This document shows, one piece after another, positions 7,231 to 39,878 of a stretch of 64,000 nucleotides of DNA (the stretch's first letter is position 1; each line of letters starts with the position of its first letter). The stretch is taken from NCBI GenBank assembly GCA_020636995.1, contig JACJWU010000006.1:217087-281086 (forward strand). The letters run 5' to 3'. The notes beneath the pieces are model-generated. The model ran no database searches. It worked only from the letters and a program-made list of their open reading frames with translations, and had not been told where the DNA came from. Both the position numbers and the translations under genes were made by a program. The stretch comes from Actinomycetota bacterium. GTDB lineage: Bacteria > Actinomycetota > Actinomycetes > S36-B12 > UBA10799.

Positions 7231-7290
<60 letters not shown>

Positions 7291-7307
<17 letters not shown>

Positions 7308-31399: not shown

Positions 31400-33124
31400 T
31401 CAGCGATCCACCAGGGTCCGCCAGATCCAGGACTGGCCCACCCGGTCGCCGGTCAACACGTACTCCGCCGCAGTCGGCACGCTCACGGTGGTGTCGAGGG
31501 CCCGCCGGTCATAACTCATTCCCACCAGCAGGAGCTCGTCGCCGGCCTGCAGAGGCTCGTCGTCCGCGGGCGTCAGCAGGACGGCATCCCCCCGCTTGAG
31601 CAGCAGCACAACGGCGTCGAGCTCCCGGGTCCGGTCCTGCGGATCGCGCAGCAACCCCGCAACTGTCGCCTGCTCGAGGTGGGGGATCAATGCGGGAGCA
31701 CCGGTCGGCGTCATCGCCAGCGTCCAGATGTCCGGTCGCTCCGTGCCGCATCTGGTCGTGATGCGTTCGAGGAGGGCCTGACCCCACTCATCGGTGTGGT
31801 GCTGAGCCTGCTGCACGAAGTCCCACAGCAGCGGATCACCTATCCGGGCCAGTACCTCATGCGCGATCAGCTTCGTCGGCAAAAGGGTGGAGTCGATCGG
31901 CAGGCCGTCGAACAGCGGCGTGTTGGCGGGATCGTTCTGGCGGGCGATCGTGAACAGCCGGGGGTTCGCCTTCTTCGCGGACACCAGCAGCGACAGGTTC
32001 GTGATGTCGTTGTTCGTCGCCGCCGCGAACGCGACAGCCGACCCGAGGTCGGCCCGCTCCAGGACCTCGGGGTCGGTGGCGTCCCCGGTGATAACCTCAA
32101 CGCCCTCCAGTGGGCCGGAGTTCTCATCGATCACGGTGACTGGGATCCCGGATCGCCGTAGATCCGCTGTGAGGTGCCCACCGAATCGTCCGTAGCCACA
32201 GACGACCCAGCGCCCGTGCTGTGGGATGGCCATGGCCTTGGGCAACGGATCCTCCGGGTTCGACGTCAGCCATGAGATCAGTTGGTAGGCGTGCGGGGCC
32301 CGCAGCGCCACGAGCAGTTCGTCACCGAAGAGGTTGAAGGGATCGATGATGATGGGGCTTCCGAACGCACGAATACGTTCTATGAGCACGTCTTCCATCG
32401 TGCGGCAGACCACCGGCACGTCCGGACGCATCAGCGCCGCGGACATGGTGATCGCGAGGTTCGCCTCGTCATCGTTGGTCAGGGCGATCACACCGGAGCA
32501 GTACTTGCTCATCAGGCCGGCCCGACGCAGTTCGTGGGGGTTGCTCGCGTCGGCGGGCAACCCCGGGACGTCGGAATGGAAGGCCGCGAGATCCAGCGCC
32601 TCGATGCGGCCCGGCTCCACATCGAGGACCACCACCCGATGGTCGCGACGGTCGAGCGAGCGAGCCACAACCTCACCGGCCTGCCCGAATCCGGCCAGGA
32701 TCACGAACGGTTCCCGCATCCGTCGCACCTGTCGTTCGAAGCGCTGCAGACCGAGCGCCTCCTTGAACCCTCGGTCCTGCAGCAGCGCCAGCACCGAGCC
32801 GATCGCATACGCCCACGCCACCACGCTGAGGTAGATCGTGACGATGACCCACGCCCTTTGCGCCGTGCTGAACGGGTAGGGGATCTCCCCGAAGCCGATG
32901 GTCGTGGCCGTGTAACTCATGAAGTAGAACGCGTCGAACAGATCCATGCGCCAGGGCTGGCCCTCGATGTCCTGTCCGGGCACAAGGGTCAGGCCGAGAA
33001 CACTGATCGCGAACAGGGAGATCAGCACGATCAAGGGCAGACGCATCCGGCGCAGCACCAGGAAGATCGCGGTGGTCGAGGGCCCCTGCGAGGCCACCCG
33101 TCGAACGGGTGCGGGGCTGCTCAT
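31400..33124 (-). CDS. Two-TM potassium channel family protein with tandem RCK (TrkA-N) domains
   Basis: The pore region is YTATTIGFGE. Two Rossmann-like RCK domains are present (ILAGFGQAGE..., VVCGYGRFGG...). Confidence 0.85.
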   Translation of the reverse strand: MSSPAPVRRVASQGPSTTAIFLVLRRMRLPLIVLISLFAISVLGLTLVPGQDIEGQPWRMDLFDAFYFMSYTATTIGFGEIPYPFSTAQRAWVIVTIYLSVVAWAYAIGSVLALLQDRGFKEALGLQRFERQVRRMREPFVILAGFGQAGEVVARSLDRRDHRVVVLDVEPGRIEALDLAAFHSDVPGLPADASNPHELRRAGLMSKYCSGVIALTNDDEANLAITMSAALMRPDVPVVCRTMEDVLIERIRAFGSPIIIDPFNLFGDELLVALRAPHAYQLISWLTSNPEDPLPKAMAIPQHGRWVVCGYGRFGGHLTADLRRSGIPVTVIDENSGPLEGVEVITGDATDPEVLERADLGSAVAFAAATNNDITNLSLLVSAKKANPRLFTIARQNDPANTPLFDGLPIDSTLLPTKLIAHEVLARIGDPLLWDFVQQAQHHTDEWGQALLERITTRCGTERPDIWTLAMTPTGAPALIPHLEQATVAGLLRDPQDRTRELDAVVLLLKRGDAVLLTPADDEPLQAGDELLLVGMSYDRRALDTTVSVPTAAEYVLTGDRVGQSWIWRTLVDR

Positions 33125-33511
33125 CTACTGCCGCCGGAAGGACACGGTTTCAACGACGAGCAGAGTCACGGAGATGATGTTCGCCAGCAGGGCGCCGCCG
33201 GACAGCGAAACGACGCTGGAGATCTGCTCGGTGTTCAGCGCCCCATCGCTAACGTTTGTGAAGATCGCCCACAGCGCGGCAGCCGCCACCAGTTGCAGGC
33301 TCGCCACCAGACTGGTGGCCAGATGGATCGCGCCGATCTGCGTTCGGTCCCCGAACTTCATCACGAGCGCGATCAGGTTGACCACCACCGCCGCGAAGAG
33401 CTCCCACTCGTTGTGGACCGCCGGATTATCGATCGGACCGATGAAGAACCCGAAATTGAGGGTCGCGGCCAGCACGACGAAGAAGCCGAAAACCACCTTC
33501 TCGAAGTTCAC
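33125..33511 (-). CDS. Small integral membrane protein co-transcribed with the K+ channel
   Basis: The 128-aa protein has 4 TM helices. GTG 33511 is preceded by AAGGAGGGGG. Its stop abuts the channel ATG. The 396-aa track ORF is an over-extension. Confidence 0.6.
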   Translation of the reverse strand: MNFEKVVFGFFVVLAATLNFGFFIGPIDNPAVHNEWELFAAVVVNLIALVMKFGDRTQIGAIHLATSLVASLQLVAAAALWAIFTNVSDGALNTEQISSVVSLSGGALLANIISVTLLVVETVSFRRQ

Positions 33512-33656
33512 GGCCCCCTCCTTTCGTCCGAGGGCGAGTGTAGTGGCGATGCCGCACTCGATGCCGTACTCGGTACGTGTGGCTGGCACGGCACGAACCG
33601 GGTACGTAGTATGCGTTTGTCCCGAAAGCCGGGCAGCACACACCGAAAGGAACCCG

Positions 33657-33833
33657 ATGAGCGACGAAGAGACCAACCCCCTCGGCGACGGCGGTGCGGA
33701 CGGCGGTGCCGACAGCGGCGCGCATGGTCCGGCTGATGGTGGCGCGGGCACCGGCCACGACGGCGGTGCCGACGGCGGCGCGGACGGCGGTGCCGACGGC
33801 GGTGCCGACGGCGGCGCGGACGGCGGTGCGTGA
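33657..33833 (+). CDS. Candidate 58-aa acidic (DGGA)n repeat micro-protein
   Basis: ATG 33657 is preceded by GAAAGGAA. A 12-bp tandem repeat (33687..33830) is in frame. The stop TGA (33831..33833) overlaps the GTG start (33830) of the next gene. All frames are open here, so coding status is unproven. Confidence 0.4.
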   Translation: MSDEETNPLGDGGADGGADSGAHGPADGGAGTGHDGGADGGADGGADGGADGGADGGA

Positions 33834-34999
33834 CAGCTCTCTCCCGCCTGTGCTCTGCACCCGCTGAGCGGTTCGCCGGCGAGATCTGGGGGCGGCGCGA
33901 ATGGTTGTCCACGGGTATGCCCGTCGACGACCTGTTCTCGCTGGCCGCCGCCGACGAACTGCTCAGCAGGCGTGGCCTGCGTACCCCCTTCCTGCGGATG
34001 GCCGCCGACGGCCGTGTTTTGCCGACCGGACGGTTCACAGGATCGGGAGGGGCGGGTGCGAACGTGGCCGATCAGGTGCGCGACGAGGCCGTACTCGGTC
34101 TCTTCGCGGATGGCGCCACGGTCGTGTTGCAGGGCCTTCACCGACTCTGGGAACCGGTGGGGGCCATCGCAGCGGAGCTCGCTGATGAACTCGGTCACCC
34201 GGTTCAGGTCAACGCCTACATCACACCGGCGCAGTCCCAGGGGTTCGATCCTCACTACGACACCCACGATGTGTTCGTCCTGCAGGTCAGCGGCAGCAAA
34301 CACTGGCGCGTCCATGCACCGGTGTTGACCGACCCCATGCCGGACCAGCCGTGGGGCCTGGTGTCCGAGCAGGTCGTGGCGCGCGCTGAAGGGACCCCCC
34401 TGCTCGACGCCGTCCTGTCACCCGGCGACTGCCTGTACCTTCCGCGGGGCTTCATCCACTCCGCAGTGGCCCTCGAGCAGGTCAGCGCCCACTTGACCTT
34501 CGGCATCCACAACGTGACTCAACGCGACGTGGTCTCGGCCGCCGTAGAGGAGTTGCGCACCAGCGGATGGCAACCGACGCTACCGGTCGGATGGGATCCG
34601 GCCAGCGACCTCGCGGGCATCCGTGAGGTGATTGAAGAAGCCGCCGAGCGTCTGCGGCTGATCGATCCGGCATCCGTCGCCGCCCGTCTGCTCGACAAGC
34701 GCGCTGCGGCGCAACGGCCTGAGCCACTGGCACCACTGGCCATGGCGCAGGCCGCCTCGAATCTCACCGCCGGGGACGTCGTGCGGTGGCGCCGCCATTC
34801 GGGAGCGAGGCTGCAGGGGACCGTTCTGCGCGTGAGTGATACTCGGACGGTGACGTTGACCCAGACCGAGACGCCGGCCGTAGAGCAGTTGCTGCCCGGG
34901 AAACCTCATCGAGTCGGCGATCTCCCGGGGGACAGCCCCGTGGAACTCGTCGCGCGCCTCATCCGGGAGGGCGTCGTCGTCCTGGCCGACGATGACTGA
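33830..34999 (+). CDS. JmjC/cupin-4 family 2-oxoglutarate oxygenase-like protein
   Basis: The 389-aa protein resembles the cupin-4 family (VNAYITPAQSQGFDPHYDTHDVFVLQVSGSKHW; HxD...H arrangement with a later FIHSAV). Confidence 0.75.
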   Translation: MTALSRLCSAPAERFAGEIWGRREWLSTGMPVDDLFSLAAADELLSRRGLRTPFLRMAADGRVLPTGRFTGSGGAGANVADQVRDEAVLGLFADGATVVLQGLHRLWEPVGAIAAELADELGHPVQVNAYITPAQSQGFDPHYDTHDVFVLQVSGSKHWRVHAPVLTDPMPDQPWGLVSEQVVARAEGTPLLDAVLSPGDCLYLPRGFIHSAVALEQVSAHLTFGIHNVTQRDVVSAAVEELRTSGWQPTLPVGWDPASDLAGIREVIEEAAERLRLIDPASVAARLLDKRAAAQRPEPLAPLAMAQAASNLTAGDVVRWRRHSGARLQGTVLRVSDTRTVTLTQTETPAVEQLLPGKPHRVGDLPGDSPVELVARLIREGVVVLADDD

Positions 35000-35855
35000 C
35001 ACATTCCGCTGCTCGTGGGCCTCACGACGGCGCGGGGACAGCCTGATCGCCACGGCTCCGCCCGCACAGCGCTGGCTGCTCATCGAGCGGGAGGGACCCT
35101 GGCCACGCCGCGCCCTCGACGTCTTCGAACCCGCCGCCGCACGACAGGTGGCCGACCGGGCCCACACTCTCGGCGCTCGGATCAGCCTCATCCGCCGACC
35201 CGCCCGCCATCCGCGGACACCCGGCCCATTCCGCTGGGCGGTCGCCGACATCCGCCCGGGCCAGGAGGGTATCCGGTGGAACGTCGCCCAGTCCCTCGAC
35301 GACGTGGTGCACACGCCCTGGGAGGTGACTGCCGGGGAGGGTGAACCGGTGGCCTTGGTGTGCTGCCACAGCAAACACGACGTGTGCTGCGCACTACGCG
35401 GACGCCCGGTCGCCGCCGCCATGGACCCGCTGTGGCCGGGTCGGGTCTGGGAATGTTCACACCTCGGCGGTGACCGCTTCGCCGCCACGGCGGTGCTGTT
35501 GCCACACGGGTTGTGCTACGGCCGACTGGATCCGGACAGCGGCCCCGCCGCGCTGAAGGCCTTCGAGCACGACACGGTTGTGCCGGAACACCTGCGTGGA
35601 CGCAGCGCCTTCAGTCGGCACGTGCAGGCGGCCCAGGCTCTGGCGCGGGAGGCGGGTCGGGGCAGCGACGCCATCGACGGGCTGCAGCCACTACACGTGA
35701 CGGGCCTCGGCGACGGTCTCATCGAGGTCGATCTCGCCGACCCCGATCTCCGCATCCGATTCCGGGAACGGGAAGTCACACTCAGCACCCCGGCCACCTG
35801 TCACGCACTCAGACCTGGCACGGCCTTCGAGTACGAGACGCTCAGCATCACCTAG
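34992..35855 (+). CDS. Sucrase/ferredoxin-like (thioredoxin-fold Fe-S) family protein
   Basis: The Cys cluster VCCHSKHDVCCALRG and the downstream SHLGGDRFA are typical of the Suc_Fer-like family. The ATG overlaps the upstream stop by 8 nt. Confidence 0.75.
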   Translation: MTDTFRCSWASRRRGDSLIATAPPAQRWLLIEREGPWPRRALDVFEPAAARQVADRAHTLGARISLIRRPARHPRTPGPFRWAVADIRPGQEGIRWNVAQSLDDVVHTPWEVTAGEGEPVALVCCHSKHDVCCALRGRPVAAAMDPLWPGRVWECSHLGGDRFAATAVLLPHGLCYGRLDPDSGPAALKAFEHDTVVPEHLRGRSAFSRHVQAAQALAREAGRGSDAIDGLQPLHVTGLGDGLIEVDLADPDLRIRFREREVTLSTPATCHALRPGTAFEYETLSIT

Positions 35856-35895
35856 ATGGCCCGGAGCGCTCGGCTCACGGCCTGCCGCCCTCAGT

Positions 35896-35956
35896 GTTGA
35901 GTGTTGCGTGGTTACGGGTTTCGGGGCCTGGGATCGGTAACCGCGCAGCAATCAAC
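35896..35956. terminator. Long 20-bp-stem hairpin between convergent genes
   Basis: GTTGAGTGTTGCGTGGTTAC (35896..35915) pairs with GTAACCGCGCAGCAATCAAC (35937..35956). On the + strand there are 17 Watson-Crick pairs, 2 G-U pairs and 1 mismatch. Confidence 0.5.
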
Positions 35957-35970
35957 TGGTGCGGCGGCCG

Positions 35971-36753
35971 TCACGCCAGCGCAAGCGCGGCCCCCACGAC
36001 AACCAACACCGAGACCACGATCTCCACCGCACCGATCACGGCTGGCCGACTCCCAGCGGGGACAGTGAACGCACGCACCGCCGCCACCCCGAAAGGCAGC
36101 AGGAGCCACACAGAGATCAGTCCCATCGCCAGGGCTGCCACGTGGAAGACGCGGGATGCGATCGCCCATCGACGATCGTCGGCTTCCCGGATGAGGGACT
36201 TCACGTGCAACACCGAACCGGTGAAGAACACCAGGCAGATGAAGGCGGCCAGCCAAGCGTCGGTGGCCGCCGGATCAGCGATGCCGAGGTTGGCGGTGTT
36301 GGTGGCGATACCCCACATCAGCGGTACGGCCACGGCGGCCTGGGCAACCAGCAGCAGATCGTTGCTCGCCCCGCGTTCGTGACCGGTCCGTGTGAGCCAC
36401 ACACTCAGCGCCCACAGGCCTGCCAGCACCGCACCCACCCACAGCAACCACGGCCGCAGGACGAGCAGTGCCACCGCGGGGACTGCCGCCATCAGAATCC
36501 ACGGCAGCCCGTCCCGCAGTTCTCGCTTGGCCAACCGCGACCACGTGCCACGTCGCCAGCGGATGACGACCGCGCGGCCCAGGTAGTAGCTGGCCGGATA
36601 GGCCAGCACCCAGGCGACAGCGAACAGCCCCGTGACCCACGACCAGCCTGCAACCAGGAACCCCAGCAGCAGTGGCACCAACAGGAAGGCCCACGCACCG
36701 TGCTGATTCGGGATGGCGATGCGTCGCGACGTCGGCGTGGTGCCAGTCGTCAC
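35971..36753 (-). CDS. YwiC-like family membrane protein (nar operon-associated)
   Basis: It has the motif NQHGAWAFLLVPLL. GTG 36753 overlaps the narI stop (GTGA). ywiC lies adjacent to narGHJI in Bacillus. Confidence 0.75.
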   Translation of the reverse strand: MTTGTTPTSRRIAIPNQHGAWAFLLVPLLLGFLVAGWSWVTGLFAVAWVLAYPASYYLGRAVVIRWRRGTWSRLAKRELRDGLPWILMAAVPAVALLVLRPWLLWVGAVLAGLWALSVWLTRTGHERGASNDLLLVAQAAVAVPLMWGIATNTANLGIADPAATDAWLAAFICLVFFTGSVLHVKSLIREADDRRWAIASRVFHVAALAMGLISVWLLLPFGVAAVRAFTVPAGSRPAVIGAVEIVVSVLVVVGAALALA

Positions 36754-37523
36754 GGCCCCCCGACCTTCTCCCACCCACGACGGGGCTGCCGGTTGCCCGC
36801 ATCATGCGGACCCCGGTCGCGATACACGATGTAGGGCCGGAAGGCGTAGCCGAACGGCGCGCTGAACGCGTGCACCAGGCGAGTGAACGGCCAGACGATG
36901 AACAGCGCCATGCCGGCCAGAGCGTGGACGCGGAAGGCCATCGGGGCCTCGGCCATCAGTTGCCCCTGCGGATCGAGGTAGAAGATCGACCGGAACCACA
37001 CGGACACGTCCTCGCGGTAGTTGTGGCCCTCCCCGAGCACGCCCGCGCCCGACAGTGTGGCCACCACGCCGAGACAGATGGCAGCCACCAGGAAGATGTA
37101 CATGGTCTTGTCGTTCTTGGTGGTGGATGCGAACACCGGCCCGACTGTGCGTCGCCGGTACACCAGCAACACGATGCCGAAGAGCGTGGCTGCTCCGGCG
37201 AAGGCACCGAGGAGCACCGCGAAGAAGTGGTAGGTCCCCTCCGAGATCCCGATCCCGTCGGTCCACGCCTGCGGGATGAGCAGCCCCACCACGTGTCCCA
37301 TGACAACGGCGAGGATGCCGAAGTGGAACAACGGACTGGCGATCCGCATCAGTTTGCGTTCGTACAGTTGACTCGAGCGGGTCGTCCAACCGAAGCGGTC
37401 GTAGCGGTAACGCCAGATCATGCCCACGACGAAGACCGCAATCGTCACATACGGCAGGACGTCCCACAGCAGGATGTCAGCGGTGCTCATGCCGGTCTCG
37501 GTGGTGTCGACAAGTGGCCTCAT
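36750..37523 (-). CDS. narI: Respiratory nitrate reductase gamma subunit
   Basis: The typical NarI N-terminus is present (LLWDVLPYVTIAVFVVGMIWRYRYDRFGWTTRSSQ), with heme-ligand His residues. Confidence 0.95.
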   Translation of the reverse strand: MRPLVDTTETGMSTADILLWDVLPYVTIAVFVVGMIWRYRYDRFGWTTRSSQLYERKLMRIASPLFHFGILAVVMGHVVGLLIPQAWTDGIGISEGTYHFFAVLLGAFAGAATLFGIVLLVYRRRTVGPVFASTTKNDKTMYIFLVAAICLGVVATLSGAGVLGEGHNYREDVSVWFRSIFYLDPQGQLMAEAPMAFRVHALAGMALFIVWPFTRLVHAFSAPFGYAFRPYIVYRDRGPHDAGNRQPRRGWEKVGGP

Positions 37524-38143
37524 CTGCGCGCTCCCGTCATCTGAAGTCCGAACGGTTCGAGTCCCACCTGCTCCACCGGCGGTCCGTGGGTGGCGATCTG
37601 TGCCATGCGCTCGGCGATCGCCGGCGTCATCTGAGGCAAGGTCGCCGTGACCGCCTGCAGCACCATCGCGTAGGGGGAGTCCACAGACTCCAAGGCCGAT
37701 TGCAGCAATCCGATCGCTGCGGTGTGCTCGGAGAGCAGTGCGTCACCGGTGAGCCGGTCGCCGATGGCCGCGAACTCGAGCACCACCGCAAGATGATCGG
37801 CGAGTTCGGCGTCACCCGCATCGAACCCGGCATCCAGGTAGGCCTGCTTGAAGTGCAGAATGGCCATTCCGCGGTTTCGGGTGTCGCCATGCGTCCAATA
37901 CGTCAGATACGGACAGGCCTTGCGCTTCATGTCGAACGTCTGGACGTACTCCCGACGCACGGCCATGAGGTCGGTCGATTCGAACCAGTCCATGAACGCC
38001 GACAGCGGATCGCGAGCGTCGTCCGGCAGTTCGGCCACCGCAGCACGAATGTCGGGCATCCGGACCATCAGTTCGTCATCCGGGTACCAGAGCAGCCAAG
38101 CGGTGGCCAGTCGTGCGACGGCCTTGTCATGCTCATGCATCAC
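37520..38143 (-). CDS. narJ: Nitrate reductase molybdenum cofactor assembly chaperone
   Basis: Its position between narH and narI, with ATGA overlaps on both sides, and its NarJ-like sequence support the call. Confidence 0.9.
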   Translation of the reverse strand: MMHEHDKAVARLATAWLLWYPDDELMVRMPDIRAAVAELPDDARDPLSAFMDWFESTDLMAVRREYVQTFDMKRKACPYLTYWTHGDTRNRGMAILHFKQAYLDAGFDAGDAELADHLAVVLEFAAIGDRLTGDALLSEHTAAIGLLQSALESVDSPYAMVLQAVTATLPQMTPAIAERMAQIATHGPPVEQVGLEPFGLQMTGARR

Positions 38144-39813
38144 TGCTCCTCCGGCTTCTTCGGCGGCACCGAGGGCATCCCCAGCGGAACGCCGACCCCG
38201 TCCCAGTTCAGCAGGTTCACCCGAGCGTCCCGCTGCTCCGCGGGCACGATCGTCTCGGACTTCTGACGCTGCGCCAACGCGTGGAACGTTTCGACCGCGA
38301 CCGGCACCGGTCGGCCGGAGGCCTCCCCGAACGGTCCCTGCTCGTACATGCCAGGCGCGCCCTCATAGTCCAGGGAACAGGCGATCTCTTCGAGGTTCTT
38401 CGCGGTCTCCGTGTGTGCCTCGGGGATGACGTAGCGGTCCTCGTACTTCGCGATCGCCAGCAGGCGGTAAAGGCTGAACATCTCCTGCTCGCTCATACCA
38501 ACCGCAGCCGGAATAGCCGCGTCGGGCGGATTGCCCAGGTTGCTGTCACGCATGAACGCGCGCATCGCCGCCAGCACCCCCAGGCTGTTCTTGACGGGCA
38601 CCACATCACCGGCGGTGAACAACTCCGCAAGGTACTCGATCGGGATCCGCAGTGCGTTGAGCGCTCCGAAGAGGTTGCCGGCGTCCTCAGCGTCGTTACC
38701 GGTCTCGCGCAGGGCGTCGACTACCGGCGACAACGGCGGGATGTACCAGACCATGGGCATGGTCCGGTATTCCGGATGCAGCGGCAGCGCCACCTTGTAC
38801 TTCTTGGCCAAGGCGTACACCGGCGACCGTTTGGCCGCCTCCAGCCAGTCCTGCGGGATTCCGTCGCGACGTGCCTGCTCGATGACTTCCGGGTCGTCCG
38901 GGTCCAGGATCAGGTCCAGCTGCGCCTCATACAGATCCTGCTCGTTCTCCGTGGCTGCCGCCTCTGTGACTCTGTCCGCGTCGTAGAGGAACAGGCCGAG
39001 ATAACGCAGTCGGCCCACACACGTCTCCGAGCACACAGTGGGCAGACCCACCTCGATGCGCGGGTAGCACAGCGTGCACTTCTCCGCCTTGCCGGTGCGG
39101 TGGTTGAAGTACACCTTCTTGTACGGACAACCGGTGACACACATGCGCCAGCCGCGGCAGGCGTCCTGGTCCACCAGGACGATTCCGTCCTCGCTGCGCT
39201 TGTACATGGCACCGGACGGACAACTGGCCACACAGGCCGGATTCAGGCAGTGTTCGCAGATGCGCGGCAGGTAGAACATGAACGCCTGCTCGAACTCCAG
39301 CTTCACCCGGTCGCCGACATCCTTCTTGATCTTCAGCAGAACCGGGTCCGCGGGGGCGAGTTCCGGGCCACCGGCCAGATCGTCGTCCCAGTTCGCCGAC
39401 CACTCGATCTTCATGGGCTTGCCGGTGATCAAGGACTTGGGACGCGCGACCGGCGTGTGCTCACCGAGGGGGGCGGAGATGAGGTTGTCGTACTCGTACG
39501 TCCACGGCTCGTAGTAATCGCGAAGCTCCGGCAGTTTGGGGTTGCTGAAGATCATCGACAGCCGGTGCAAACGCCCGCCCGATCGCAGCTTGAGTTTGCC
39601 GCGCTTGGTCCGGACCCATCCGCCCTTCCACTTGTCCTGATCCTGATAGGTGCGCGGGTACCCCTGGCCGGGGCGGGTCTCGACGTTGTTGAACCACACG
39701 TACTCGACCCCGGCGCGGTTGGTCCACGCCTGCTTGCACGTCACCGAGCAGGTGTGACACCCGATGCACTTGTCGAGGTTCATCACCATGCCCATCTGGG
39801 CCATCACCTTCAT
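38140..39813 (-). CDS. narH: Respiratory nitrate reductase beta subunit
   Basis: MKVMAQMGMVMNLDKCIGCHTCSVTCK and further Fe-S Cys groups are present. ATG 39813 is preceded by AGGAG. Confidence 0.95.
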   Translation of the reverse strand: MKVMAQMGMVMNLDKCIGCHTCSVTCKQAWTNRAGVEYVWFNNVETRPGQGYPRTYQDQDKWKGGWVRTKRGKLKLRSGGRLHRLSMIFSNPKLPELRDYYEPWTYEYDNLISAPLGEHTPVARPKSLITGKPMKIEWSANWDDDLAGGPELAPADPVLLKIKKDVGDRVKLEFEQAFMFYLPRICEHCLNPACVASCPSGAMYKRSEDGIVLVDQDACRGWRMCVTGCPYKKVYFNHRTGKAEKCTLCYPRIEVGLPTVCSETCVGRLRYLGLFLYDADRVTEAAATENEQDLYEAQLDLILDPDDPEVIEQARRDGIPQDWLEAAKRSPVYALAKKYKVALPLHPEYRTMPMVWYIPPLSPVVDALRETGNDAEDAGNLFGALNALRIPIEYLAELFTAGDVVPVKNSLGVLAAMRAFMRDSNLGNPPDAAIPAAVGMSEQEMFSLYRLLAIAKYEDRYVIPEAHTETAKNLEEIACSLDYEGAPGMYEQGPFGEASGRPVPVAVETFHALAQRQKSETIVPAEQRDARVNLLNWDGVGVPLGMPSVPPKKPEEQ

Positions 39814-39832
39814 GACGCGACTCCTGTCGGAC

Positions 39833-39878
39833 AAGGTTGAATGAGAACGACAACTGAGTGGTCGGATTCCTTCAAGCT
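39833..39878. repeat. Degenerate copy of the AAGGTTGAATGAGA hairpin element inside the narG-narH spacer
   Basis: AAGGTTGAATGAGAACGACAACTGAGTGGTCGGATTCCTTCAAGCTT aligns with 31293..31340. Confidence 0.7.

Follow-up and report, generated by a model that had tools for sequence, protein, structure and literature searches.

Organization of the Locus

We analyzed a stretch of 64,000 nucleotides (nt) from an Actinomycetota bacterium (assembly GCA_020636995.1, contig JACJWU010000006.1), hereafter called the window, in which a very short open reading frame (ORF) directly precedes the genes for a JmjC-type oxygenase and a Suc_Fer-like protein. Checked in the sequence, this micro-ORF occupies 33657..33833 on the plus strand and comprises 58 codons starting with ATG 33657, and its translation is MSDEETNPLGDGGADGGADSGAHGPADGGAGTGHDGGADGGADGGADGGADGGADGGA, that is, MSDEETNPLGDGGADGGADSGAHGPADGGAGTGHDGGA(DGGA)5. 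The resulting mini-protein of 58 amino acids (aa) has the N-terminus MSDEETNPLG, two His-containing modules (..SGAHGPADGGAGTGHDGGA..), and then (DGGA)n, with a net charge of -13. Its DGGA units are encoded by a tandem repeat with a 12-bp period (33687..33830, plus strand), for which Tandem Repeats Finder (TRF) reported 12.0 copies, 71% matches, a score of 118, and the consensus GACGGCGGTGCG. The motif GAAAGGAA lies at 33645..33652, 4 nt ahead of ATG 33657, and its GGA core lies 5 nt ahead.

The three genes are packed without intergenic DNA. The TGA of the micro-ORF (33831..33833) overlaps the GTG start (33830..33832) of the oxygenase gene in a GTGA junction. The oxygenase gene (33830..34999, plus strand) encodes a JmjC Fe(II)/2-oxoglutarate (2OG) hydroxylase of 389 aa that belongs to PF08007 and is of the ribosomal-oxygenase type. 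Its end (stop codon 34997..34999) overlaps, as ATGACTGA, the start of the Suc_Fer-like gene (34992..35855, plus strand; 287 aa; PF06999, thioredoxin-like ferredoxin family), whose ATG 34992 stands 8 nt inside the end of the oxygenase gene. The initial annotation of this DNA had described the 12-bp repeat, the DGGA frame, the GTGA overlap, and the stop/ATG overlap, and all of these coordinates were confirmed in the sequence.

Coding Status of the Micro-ORF

The repeat might simply be a non-coding, GC-rich minisatellite that carries an ORF by chance. Taken as a single sequence, the window is compatible with this: five of the six frames contain long ORFs over the repeat, and the remaining one, the cupin (oxygenase) frame, is interrupted by one TGA near 33731, past which it stays open up to the GTG. 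GC content by codon position, a check suggested in the initial annotation, proved ambiguous, with a GC3 of 0.79 in the DGGA frame against 0.91 in the +1 frame, and it picked no frame within the window.

The comparison with close relatives (contigs L002-L012, oxygenases 74-88% identical) argues against a chance ORF. Four lineages, whose oxygenases are 12-26% apart, were compared. Within the first 39 codons of the micro-ORF, each pair had 0 changes at codon position 1, at most one at position 2 (T6M), and 10-18 at position 3, and the same pattern of two kept bases and a variable third was seen along the whole micro-ORF. The same pairs differed in 46-105 non-synonymous codons of the oxygenase gene. 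Because such codons are nearly lacking in the micro-ORF, purifying selection is, on the evidence of these alignments, stronger on the peptide than on the oxygenase. An independent clade gave a similar picture: in ten three-module peptides the summed pairwise differences were 413, 497, and 1721 at positions 1, 2, and 3, the amino-acid identity was 81% in the peptide frame versus 49-51% in the other two (nucleotide identity, 76%), and more than one codon was used in 45 of the 54 invariant amino-acid columns.

Indels pointed in the same direction. Among the close relatives they never break the frame inside the micro-ORF, but they do so ahead of its ATG. The ATG, the ribosome-binding site, and the position of the stop are conserved, and the same 4-nt overlap with the oxygenase gene was found in all of L002-L012. 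The length of the micro-ORF was 58, 70, 78, 82, or 86 aa, always in steps of four codons; the initial annotation had asked whether the repeat number changes by multiples of 12 bp only. Its caveat that the repeat may be non-coding was correct for a lone sequence and is refuted by the third-position-only divergence across lineages. Considering also the conserved start, ribosome-binding site, and stop position, the excess of identity in the peptide frame, and the occurrence of the same peptide family upstream of the oxygenase across Actinomycetota orders (see below), a chance ORF in a minisatellite has a negligible probability. The micro-ORF is almost certainly a real protein-coding gene that is functionally tied to the oxygenase.

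Peptides of different length were also found beside one and the same oxygenase. The identical (100%) protein P0005 is accompanied by peptides of 86 aa (L002, L003, and L012), 58 aa (L004), and 70 aa (L005). The DGGA copy number could thus vary in 12-bp steps within one population or species, either as an in-frame polymorphism resembling a variable number of tandem repeats or through collapse in short-read assembly.

A Family of Acidic Repeat Peptides

As a single-sequence query, the 58-aa peptide gave only three weak matches, its score being depressed by low complexity. The family search therefore used a profile built from three-module peptides. At 90% identity it recovered 205 clusters, and when 1.84 billion representatives were searched exhaustively with a profile, 97 clusters at 50% identity were obtained. 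The carriers included Mycobacterium/Mycolicibacterium (e.g., Mflv_0336), Rhodococcus, Actinoplanes, Micromonospora, Phytohabitans, and Leifsonia. All of the 205 clusters were named "hypothetical protein" except for one "BatC protein" (Leifsonia poae), which is a mislabel, and the peptide genes are sometimes missed in annotation altogether. Scans of five diverse peptides against Pfam and NCBIfam, with E values up to 10, identified no family and returned only spurious matches to Ser-Asp repeat adhesins; the peptide motifs were not found in the literature searched, and no record of the peptide turned up in Pfam or NCBIfam.

The 79 distinct peptides that we compiled have a median length of 83 aa and consist largely of Gly (36.5%), Ala (19%), and Asp (17.8%); Cys, Trp, Phe, and Tyr are nearly absent. 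At the N-terminus most lineages have M-[AS]-[LI]-[DN]-D-D-D-[IM]-T-T and the clade of the window has MSDEE(T/M)NPLG, and the C-terminus is mostly DGSA or DGGA. Between them lies a variable number of modules built on ADGGA or DGGADG cores, or plain (DGGA)n. Many members share the module (E/H)GPADGGA-x3-6-(H/Q/S/T)DGGADG(G/S)A, for example EGPADGGANPxGHDGGADGSA, and in the best-defined subgroup E-G-x-A-D-G-G-A-N-x-x-G-H-D-G-G-A-D-G-(S/T)-A is invariant across the two or three copies of each peptide and across species. His occurs in 67 of the 79 peptides and the dipeptide HD in 57; the peptides of 15 loci, which belong to several unrelated lineages, have no His. The peptides carry no signal sequence. 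Judged by these features, the peptide is a small, cytoplasmic, acidic repeat protein of a new, unannotated family of Actinomycetota.

Four sequences that could pass for natural fusions of the peptide and the oxygenase (P0272, P0269, P0255, and P0306) were rejected. They are public-database entries of 241-765 aa in which peptide modules and parts of the oxygenase are mixed with Arg-rich stretches read out of frame, the products of frameshift-ridden assemblies.

Linkage of the Peptide, Oxygenase, and Suc_Fer-Like Genes

A query of genome contigs with the single oxygenase protein returned one locus, and a metagenome scan with the oxygenase alignment added 80 further loci at 45-76% identity. Where 200 nt or more of upstream sequence is available (approximately 80 loci; oxygenase identity, 45-88%), nearly all loci have a peptide ORF on the plus strand that ends at or just before the oxygenase start. 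The exceptions were L019, where the contig ends 268 nt upstream, L073, which keeps a truncated remnant, and L068, which has one frameshift relative to its close relative L080. The findings that the initial annotation had named as speaking against its proposal, and that can be sought by computation (an oxygenase without an open frame upstream, frame-breaking indels in the repeat, or an oxygenase start farther upstream), did not emerge, L068 and L073 being the only frameshifted and truncated cases. In the opposite direction, look-ups that started from the peptide found a JmjC_2 gene immediately downstream in four of four cases (Mycobacterium, Actinoplanes, Micromonospora, and a Rhodococcus metagenome-assembled genome, MAG). 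Gene order thus establishes a reciprocal linkage between the peptide and an NO66-like hydroxylase that looks catalytically intact.

The third gene is less constant. A Suc_Fer-like gene follows the oxygenase gene in 63 of the 69 loci with room for it and is absent from Actinoplanes, Micromonospora, the Rhodococcus MAG, and three metagenomic loci. Since some lineages lack it, the core pair consists of the peptide and the JmjC_2 protein; the three-gene unit proposed in the initial annotation does recur, with its Suc_Fer-like member frequent but missing from some lineages. Likewise, the distribution is far wider than the Micrococcales to which that annotation had looked, including Mycobacteriales, Micromonosporales, Geodermatophilales, and Nanopelagicales-like MAGs. 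Cultivable genera are among the carriers (Mycolicibacterium, Agromyces, Agreia, Leifsonia, Klenkia, Blastococcus, Actinoplanes, and Micromonospora). The flanking genes differed in every lineage examined, so the unit is self-contained. In Mycobacterium sp. SMC-4 (L094, 7741..10183) the three-gene unit is followed by a FecCD permease, an ABC ATPase, and a periplasmic binding protein, which form an importer of the iron-siderophore type; this link to metal uptake, seen in one lineage only, may be coincidental.

The junction between peptide and oxygenase genes varies. A stop/start overlap of 4 nt or 1 nt was found in at least 37 loci, so that co-translation is frequent, and short gaps occur elsewhere; the 4-nt overlap is common but not universal. 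In Klenkia and the Rhodococcus MAG a spacer of about 150 nt opens with a long G+C hairpin and closes with a separate ribosome-binding site. These hairpins stand right after the peptide stop (L091, 5853..5900; L098, 4187..4245), are perfect (12+7 bp in one and 14 bp in the other), and have no U tract; the overall folds were not better than those of shuffled sequences (z -1.69 and -0.31). The hairpin may be a terminator or attenuator, or an element that stabilizes the mRNA and sets the peptide-to-enzyme ratio. With a hairpin right behind the peptide stop and a separate ribosome-binding site for the enzyme, the arrangement is the one usually seen where a structural gene is expressed in excess over the enzyme that goes with it. 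A programmed -1 frameshift that would fuse peptide and oxygenase at GTGA was considered and rejected: there is no slippery site, and the junctions vary among overlaps, gaps, and 150-nt spacers.

The overlaps and hairpins also bear on the possibility that the micro-ORF is mainly a cis-acting leader, hard to translate through ribosome destabilization or slow peptide-bond formation, which would gate oxygenase synthesis by coupling or hairpin attenuation and provide feedback on the state of the ribosome. The N-terminal D/E run (M-A-L-D-D-D-D-M-T-T, or MSDEE here) is like N-terminal sequences reported to destabilize ribosomes during translation (PMC12673854, PMC9718836, PMC11162784), the 4-nt and 1-nt overlaps tie oxygenase translation to the upstream ORF, strong hairpins lie 3' of the ORF in two spaced loci, and the regulated enzyme belongs to a ribosome-modifying family. 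On the other hand, modules of 21-24 residues that are conserved across orders in two, three, or more copies exceed what an acidic or Gly-rich stall needs, 58-130 aa is long for a leader peptide, the module number varies freely, and the hairpins come without an identified alternative antiterminator and in folds no better than shuffles. Considering both sides, we regard such a leader as improbable. If it did exist, it would constitute a new feedback loop between ribosome performance and a ribosome-modifying enzyme.

Properties of the Oxygenase

The oxygenase matched Pfam JmjC_2 (PF08007) with an E value of 2.9e-29 and 101.6 bits, against a gathering cut-off of 22. When the family profile was searched against PDB sequences, NO66 came first (E 5e-35, covering the JmjC, dimerization, and C-terminal domains), followed by MINA53 (1e-24) and YcfD (about 5e-11); profile positions 121-400 align with NO66 residues 133-447. 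The structures agreed with the sequences. An AlphaFold2 (AF2) model of the oxygenase had a mean predicted local distance difference test (pLDDT) score of 89.7, and in Foldseek the best match was again NO66 (E 6e-25, template modeling score 0.67-0.69, full-length chains), then MINA53, YcfD, and YxbC. The C-terminal domain of the model has the order beta-beta-beta-(beta)-alpha-alpha.

H142, D144, H210, K157, N128, and Y130 were invariant in 23 family members. The first three align to the HxD...H metal ligands of NO66, so that the 2-His-1-carboxylate site proposed earlier is present, and K157 aligns to the Lys in the NO66 stretch GRKLWRV. An NxYxTP-type motif contains N128 and Y130, the probable counterparts of 2OG-binding residues of NO66. 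The start position and the N-terminus MTALSRLCSAP are conserved in close relatives, and the family also conserves an N-terminal segment of its own (LLSRRGLRTPFLRMA...FTGSGGAGA), which the alignment to NO66 does not cover. The enzyme is therefore a three-domain (JmjC, dimerization, and winged-helix) oxygenase of the ribosomal type that is closest to NO66 and has kept the metal and 2OG ligands. The "JmjC/cupin oxygenase" of the initial annotation is thereby refined to the NO66/MINA53/YcfD ribosomal-oxygenase type. An RRE-like fold (RRE, the recognition element of RiPPs, peptides made on the ribosome and modified after translation) has been reported in PF08007 proteins, with bacterial homologues in RiPP-like contexts (PMC12710340).

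Properties of the Suc_Fer-Like Protein

The Suc_Fer-like protein matched PF06999 with an E value of 2.2e-18 and 67.5 bits against a cut-off of 34.9. No homologue was found among PDB sequences, and an AF2 model from the single sequence was unusable (pLDDT 36). Its pI is near neutral, about 7.2 here, within a range of about 7.2-7.7. In the family alignment the residues C7, C124, H126, H129, D130, C132, C133, C155 (88%), H157, G159, G160, D161, and C270 are conserved. The [2Fe-2S] cluster of Apd1/Aim32 is held by the pattern C-x8-C ... H-x3-H. The protein described here shares with Apd1/Aim32 the PF06999 domain, the C-x8-C (C124...C133), and the H-x-G-G (H157), whereas the second His of H-x3-H is replaced by Asp (D161) and a C-terminal extension of about 80 aa is added. 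Together with the terminal C7 and C270, the conserved H126, H129, D130, and C132 suggest a different, unusual, or additional metal site. The literature searched contained no link between Suc_Fer-like and JmjC enzymes.

A Candidate Substrate for the Hydroxylase

Based on the linkage, the NO66-like enzyme type, the JmjC hydroxylases known to act on ribosomal precursor peptides (CzlI and BipG, see below), the RRE-like fold reported for PF08007 proteins, and the gene layout at the spaced loci, we hypothesized that the hydroxylase has a dedicated substrate in the mini-protein, which it would modify at multiple sites, a reading to which we assign a probability of roughly 0.5. The peptide gene would be transcribed together with the oxygenase gene and, in the window, translationally coupled to it at GTGA. 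The N-terminal motif of the peptide would be the recognition sequence, possibly bound by the C-terminal winged-helix/RRE-like domain of the enzyme, and the repeated modules would be hydroxylated on a side chain. Asp is the candidate target, because no other functional residue is shared by every family member (ADGGA/DGGADG), and His would be a further candidate where it is present. A polyanionic peptide with many hydroxylated residues would result, such as an intracellular metal ligand rich in beta-hydroxy-Asp, and it would stay inside the cell since there is no signal peptide, protease, or exporter. The Suc_Fer-like protein could act as a redox or iron-handling helper. The characterized enzymes of this kind hydroxylate residues that sit in loops rich in Gly, such as GRGNAGGLHHH in Rpl27a and FGGGNHQH in Rpl8 (PMC9994133). 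The peptide module GGANPGGHDGG resembles these loops, a resemblance that we take as a lead rather than as a test.

Several observations weigh against a dedicated substrate. The characterized enzymes of this type all act on ribosomal proteins, at His or Arg and not at Asp, and no precedent is known for this subfamily hydroxylating Asp. His cannot be the target throughout the family, given the polyphyletic His-less peptides of 15 loci and the absence of any oxygenase column that co-varies with the presence of His. Moreover, Ser421 of NO66, which with one other residue holds the His of the substrate (PMC9994133), corresponds to an invariant Gly (G225) here. The oxygenase itself is acidic (net charge -14, pI 5.25), and no global charge complementarity with the polyanionic peptide is visible. 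The conserved N-terminal acidic run would fit a cis-acting, hard-to-translate leader as well. Finally, no peptidase, exporter/transporter, or other tailoring gene is conserved with the unit in the lineages examined. The term "RiPP-like" used in the initial annotation therefore holds for a short precursor-type gene beside a co-oriented modifying enzyme, conserved across taxa, but not for a conserved protease or exporter.

The composition of the peptides could also be read in terms of binding. Their Gly-, Ala-, and Asp-rich sequence, with conserved Asp, Asn, and His positions, would suit a partner of the oxygenase and/or the Suc_Fer-like protein that is not a substrate: a polyanionic metal binder for the buffering or delivery of Fe(II), Ca(II), or Mn(II), or else a pseudo-substrate that regulates an enzyme which in reality acts on a ribosomal protein. 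Asp/Asn/Gly-rich loops of such a kind occur in Ca-binding motifs. The acidity of the oxygenase, which is like that of ribosomal-protein hydroxylases, and the near-neutral pI of the Suc_Fer-like protein are in keeping with this, and the tight stop/start overlaps would suit roughly stoichiometric co-production. Peptides that resemble the substrates but have Asn or Gln where these have His inhibit MINA53 and NO66 (PMC9994133), and the FecCD/ABC/periplasmic-binding importer adjoins the unit in Mycobacterium sp. SMC-4. However, a metal-transport neighbor exists in that lineage only, and the flanks vary elsewhere. The variable module number and the hairpin-separated layout fit an excess product better than a subunit of fixed stoichiometry, and the peptide is kept where the Suc_Fer-like protein is absent, which shows that the latter is not an obligate partner. 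A non-substrate partner is thus rather unlikely in our estimation.

Returning to the peptide as the substrate, the conserved co-translated peptide is a concrete candidate for the target of the NO66-like enzymes of Actinomycetota. Among the members covered by our literature and PDB searches, a substrate in the bacterial ribosomal-oxygenase family is known only for the YcfD type (uL16 Arg81), and nothing was found in them on the function of the Actinomycetota NO66-like enzymes. We tentatively suggest, with somewhat more doubt than belief, that this NO66-like lineage acts not, or not only, on ribosomes, and hydroxylates a co-encoded tandem-module mini-protein at many sites. The outcome would be a new class of intracellular polyhydroxylated polyanionic peptide (e.g., a beta-hydroxy-Asp metal ligand or an oxygen- or iron-dependent signaling protein), with the Suc_Fer-like iron-sulfur protein as a third component. 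Were the peptide the substrate, the range of JmjC-type peptide hydroxylation would grow by a new and very widespread family (205 clusters at 90% and 97 at 50% identity), Asp or His hydroxylation on a tandem-module scaffold could emerge, and a class of modified small proteins free of protease and exporter would be added.

Relationship to Known Systems

The ribosomal oxygenases NO66/RIOX1, MINA53/RIOX2, and YcfD/RoxA share with the oxygenase of the window the PF08007 domain, the three-domain fold, the HxD...H motif, and the 2OG Lys. Their targets are ribosomal proteins (His of uL2 and of uL15; Arg of uL16), whereas here a peptide gene stands upstream and usually a Suc_Fer-like gene downstream. 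We know of no dedicated co-encoded peptide for NO66, MINA53, or YcfD.

A closer parallel in gene order is offered by CzlI (curacozole, a Phe hydroxylase) and BipG (biphenomycin, an Orn hydroxylase), JmjC Fe(II)/2OG enzymes that act on ribosomal precursor peptides and are encoded beside them, as in the pair described here (PMC11575548, PMC12707348). Their clusters, however, contain cyclodehydratases, MNIO or rSAM enzymes, proteases, and transporters, and lead to small secreted antibiotics, whereas the present unit has two or three genes and no protease or exporter. CzlI is closest to YxbC, and the oxygenase of the window is closest to NO66. Unlike the CzlI and BipG precursors, the present peptide is an acidic tandem-module protein of 60-130 aa without Cys or aromatic residues.

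Two other systems show partial likeness. In the SmaO/SmaX system an Fe(II)/2OG oxygenase hydroxylates an Asp of the precursor to hydroxy-Asp, which a second iron enzyme turns into aminomalonate (PMC12186529), a formal parallel to an oxygenase plus a second metalloprotein that would act on an Asp-rich peptide. The second enzyme of that system has an HD domain, whereas a Suc_Fer-like protein takes this place here; SmaO is characterized no further than as an Fe(II)/2OG oxygenase, and Asp is only a candidate target here. Bufferins are reportedly widespread small ribosomal peptide metallophores with one dedicated iron enzyme and a proposed role in metal homeostasis rather than as antibiotics; they are said to contain Cys, to be exported to the periplasm, and to be modified by an MNIO (DUF692). 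In contrast to bufferins as so described, the peptides of the present family have no signal sequence and no Cys and are paired with a JmjC enzyme. A hydroxylase of proteins or peptides that is paired with a ribosomal peptide of its own would be known in kind; what appears to be new is the peptide family itself, and the gene pair seems to be undescribed.

The 5' Region of the Micro-ORF and the Neighboring Genes

Upstream of the micro-ORF lies a promoter-like block (33580..33612, plus strand). It consists of TGGCTGGCA at 33580..33588 with a -35-like CTGGCA (33583..33588), an 18-nt spacer, and GGGTACGTAGTAT at 33600..33612 with a -10-like TAGTAT (33607..33612). In the DNA alignment the bases of this block were invariant in the four lineages, whereas the surrounding intergenic DNA diverges and contains indels. 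A scan with a consensus of the E. coli type found no promoter at 33580..33612 and no relevant terminator. From its conservation we infer that the block works as a promoter. GGGTACGTAGTAT also contains the palindrome TACGTA, which overlaps the -10-like TAGTAT and could be an operator for some regulator in addition to a promoter element.

The 5' leader (33623..33656, plus strand) contains the conserved CGAAAG(C/T)CGGGCAGC (33623..33637) and the ribosome-binding site GAAAGGA (33645..33651). Indels of 1-2 nt at 33638..33643 disrupt the frame ahead of the ATG among relatives, which fixes ATG 33657 as the start. A hairpin in the leader was not supported, the fold being no better than those of shuffled sequences (z +1.46), and Rfam gave a single match in the whole 64-kb window, a tRNA at 7231..7304, and none at the leader. 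A second small 12-bp repeat (CGATGCCGCACT, 33547..33572, 2.2 copies, 92% matches) is located between the DUF6394 gene and the micro-ORF; it is shared by the 88% relative L010 and absent from the 74-77% relatives.

The genes upstream of the micro-ORF are divergent from it and include the gene for the DUF6394 membrane protein (33128..33511, minus strand), a TrkA-N/ion-channel gene, and a gene for a MOSC protein. The DUF6394 gene abuts the TrkA-N/Ion_trans_2 potassium-channel gene (31403..33511, minus strand, for the pair), and the pair is kept in all close relatives, with 96-97% identity in DUF6394. This conserved pairing suggests that DUF6394 may be an accessory subunit of the adjoining potassium channel. 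Downstream, on the minus strand, ywiC is followed by narI, narJ, and narH (36753..39834), which encode the gamma, delta, and beta subunits of respiratory nitrate reductase. In the relative with 74% identity, a 1.2-kb gene for a DUF222 and HNH endonuclease protein (L002, 6234..7460) is inserted between the Suc_Fer-like gene and ywiC, and the window has only about 115 nt (35856..35970) at this site. The HNH gene looks like a mobile element that is present or absent between close relatives.

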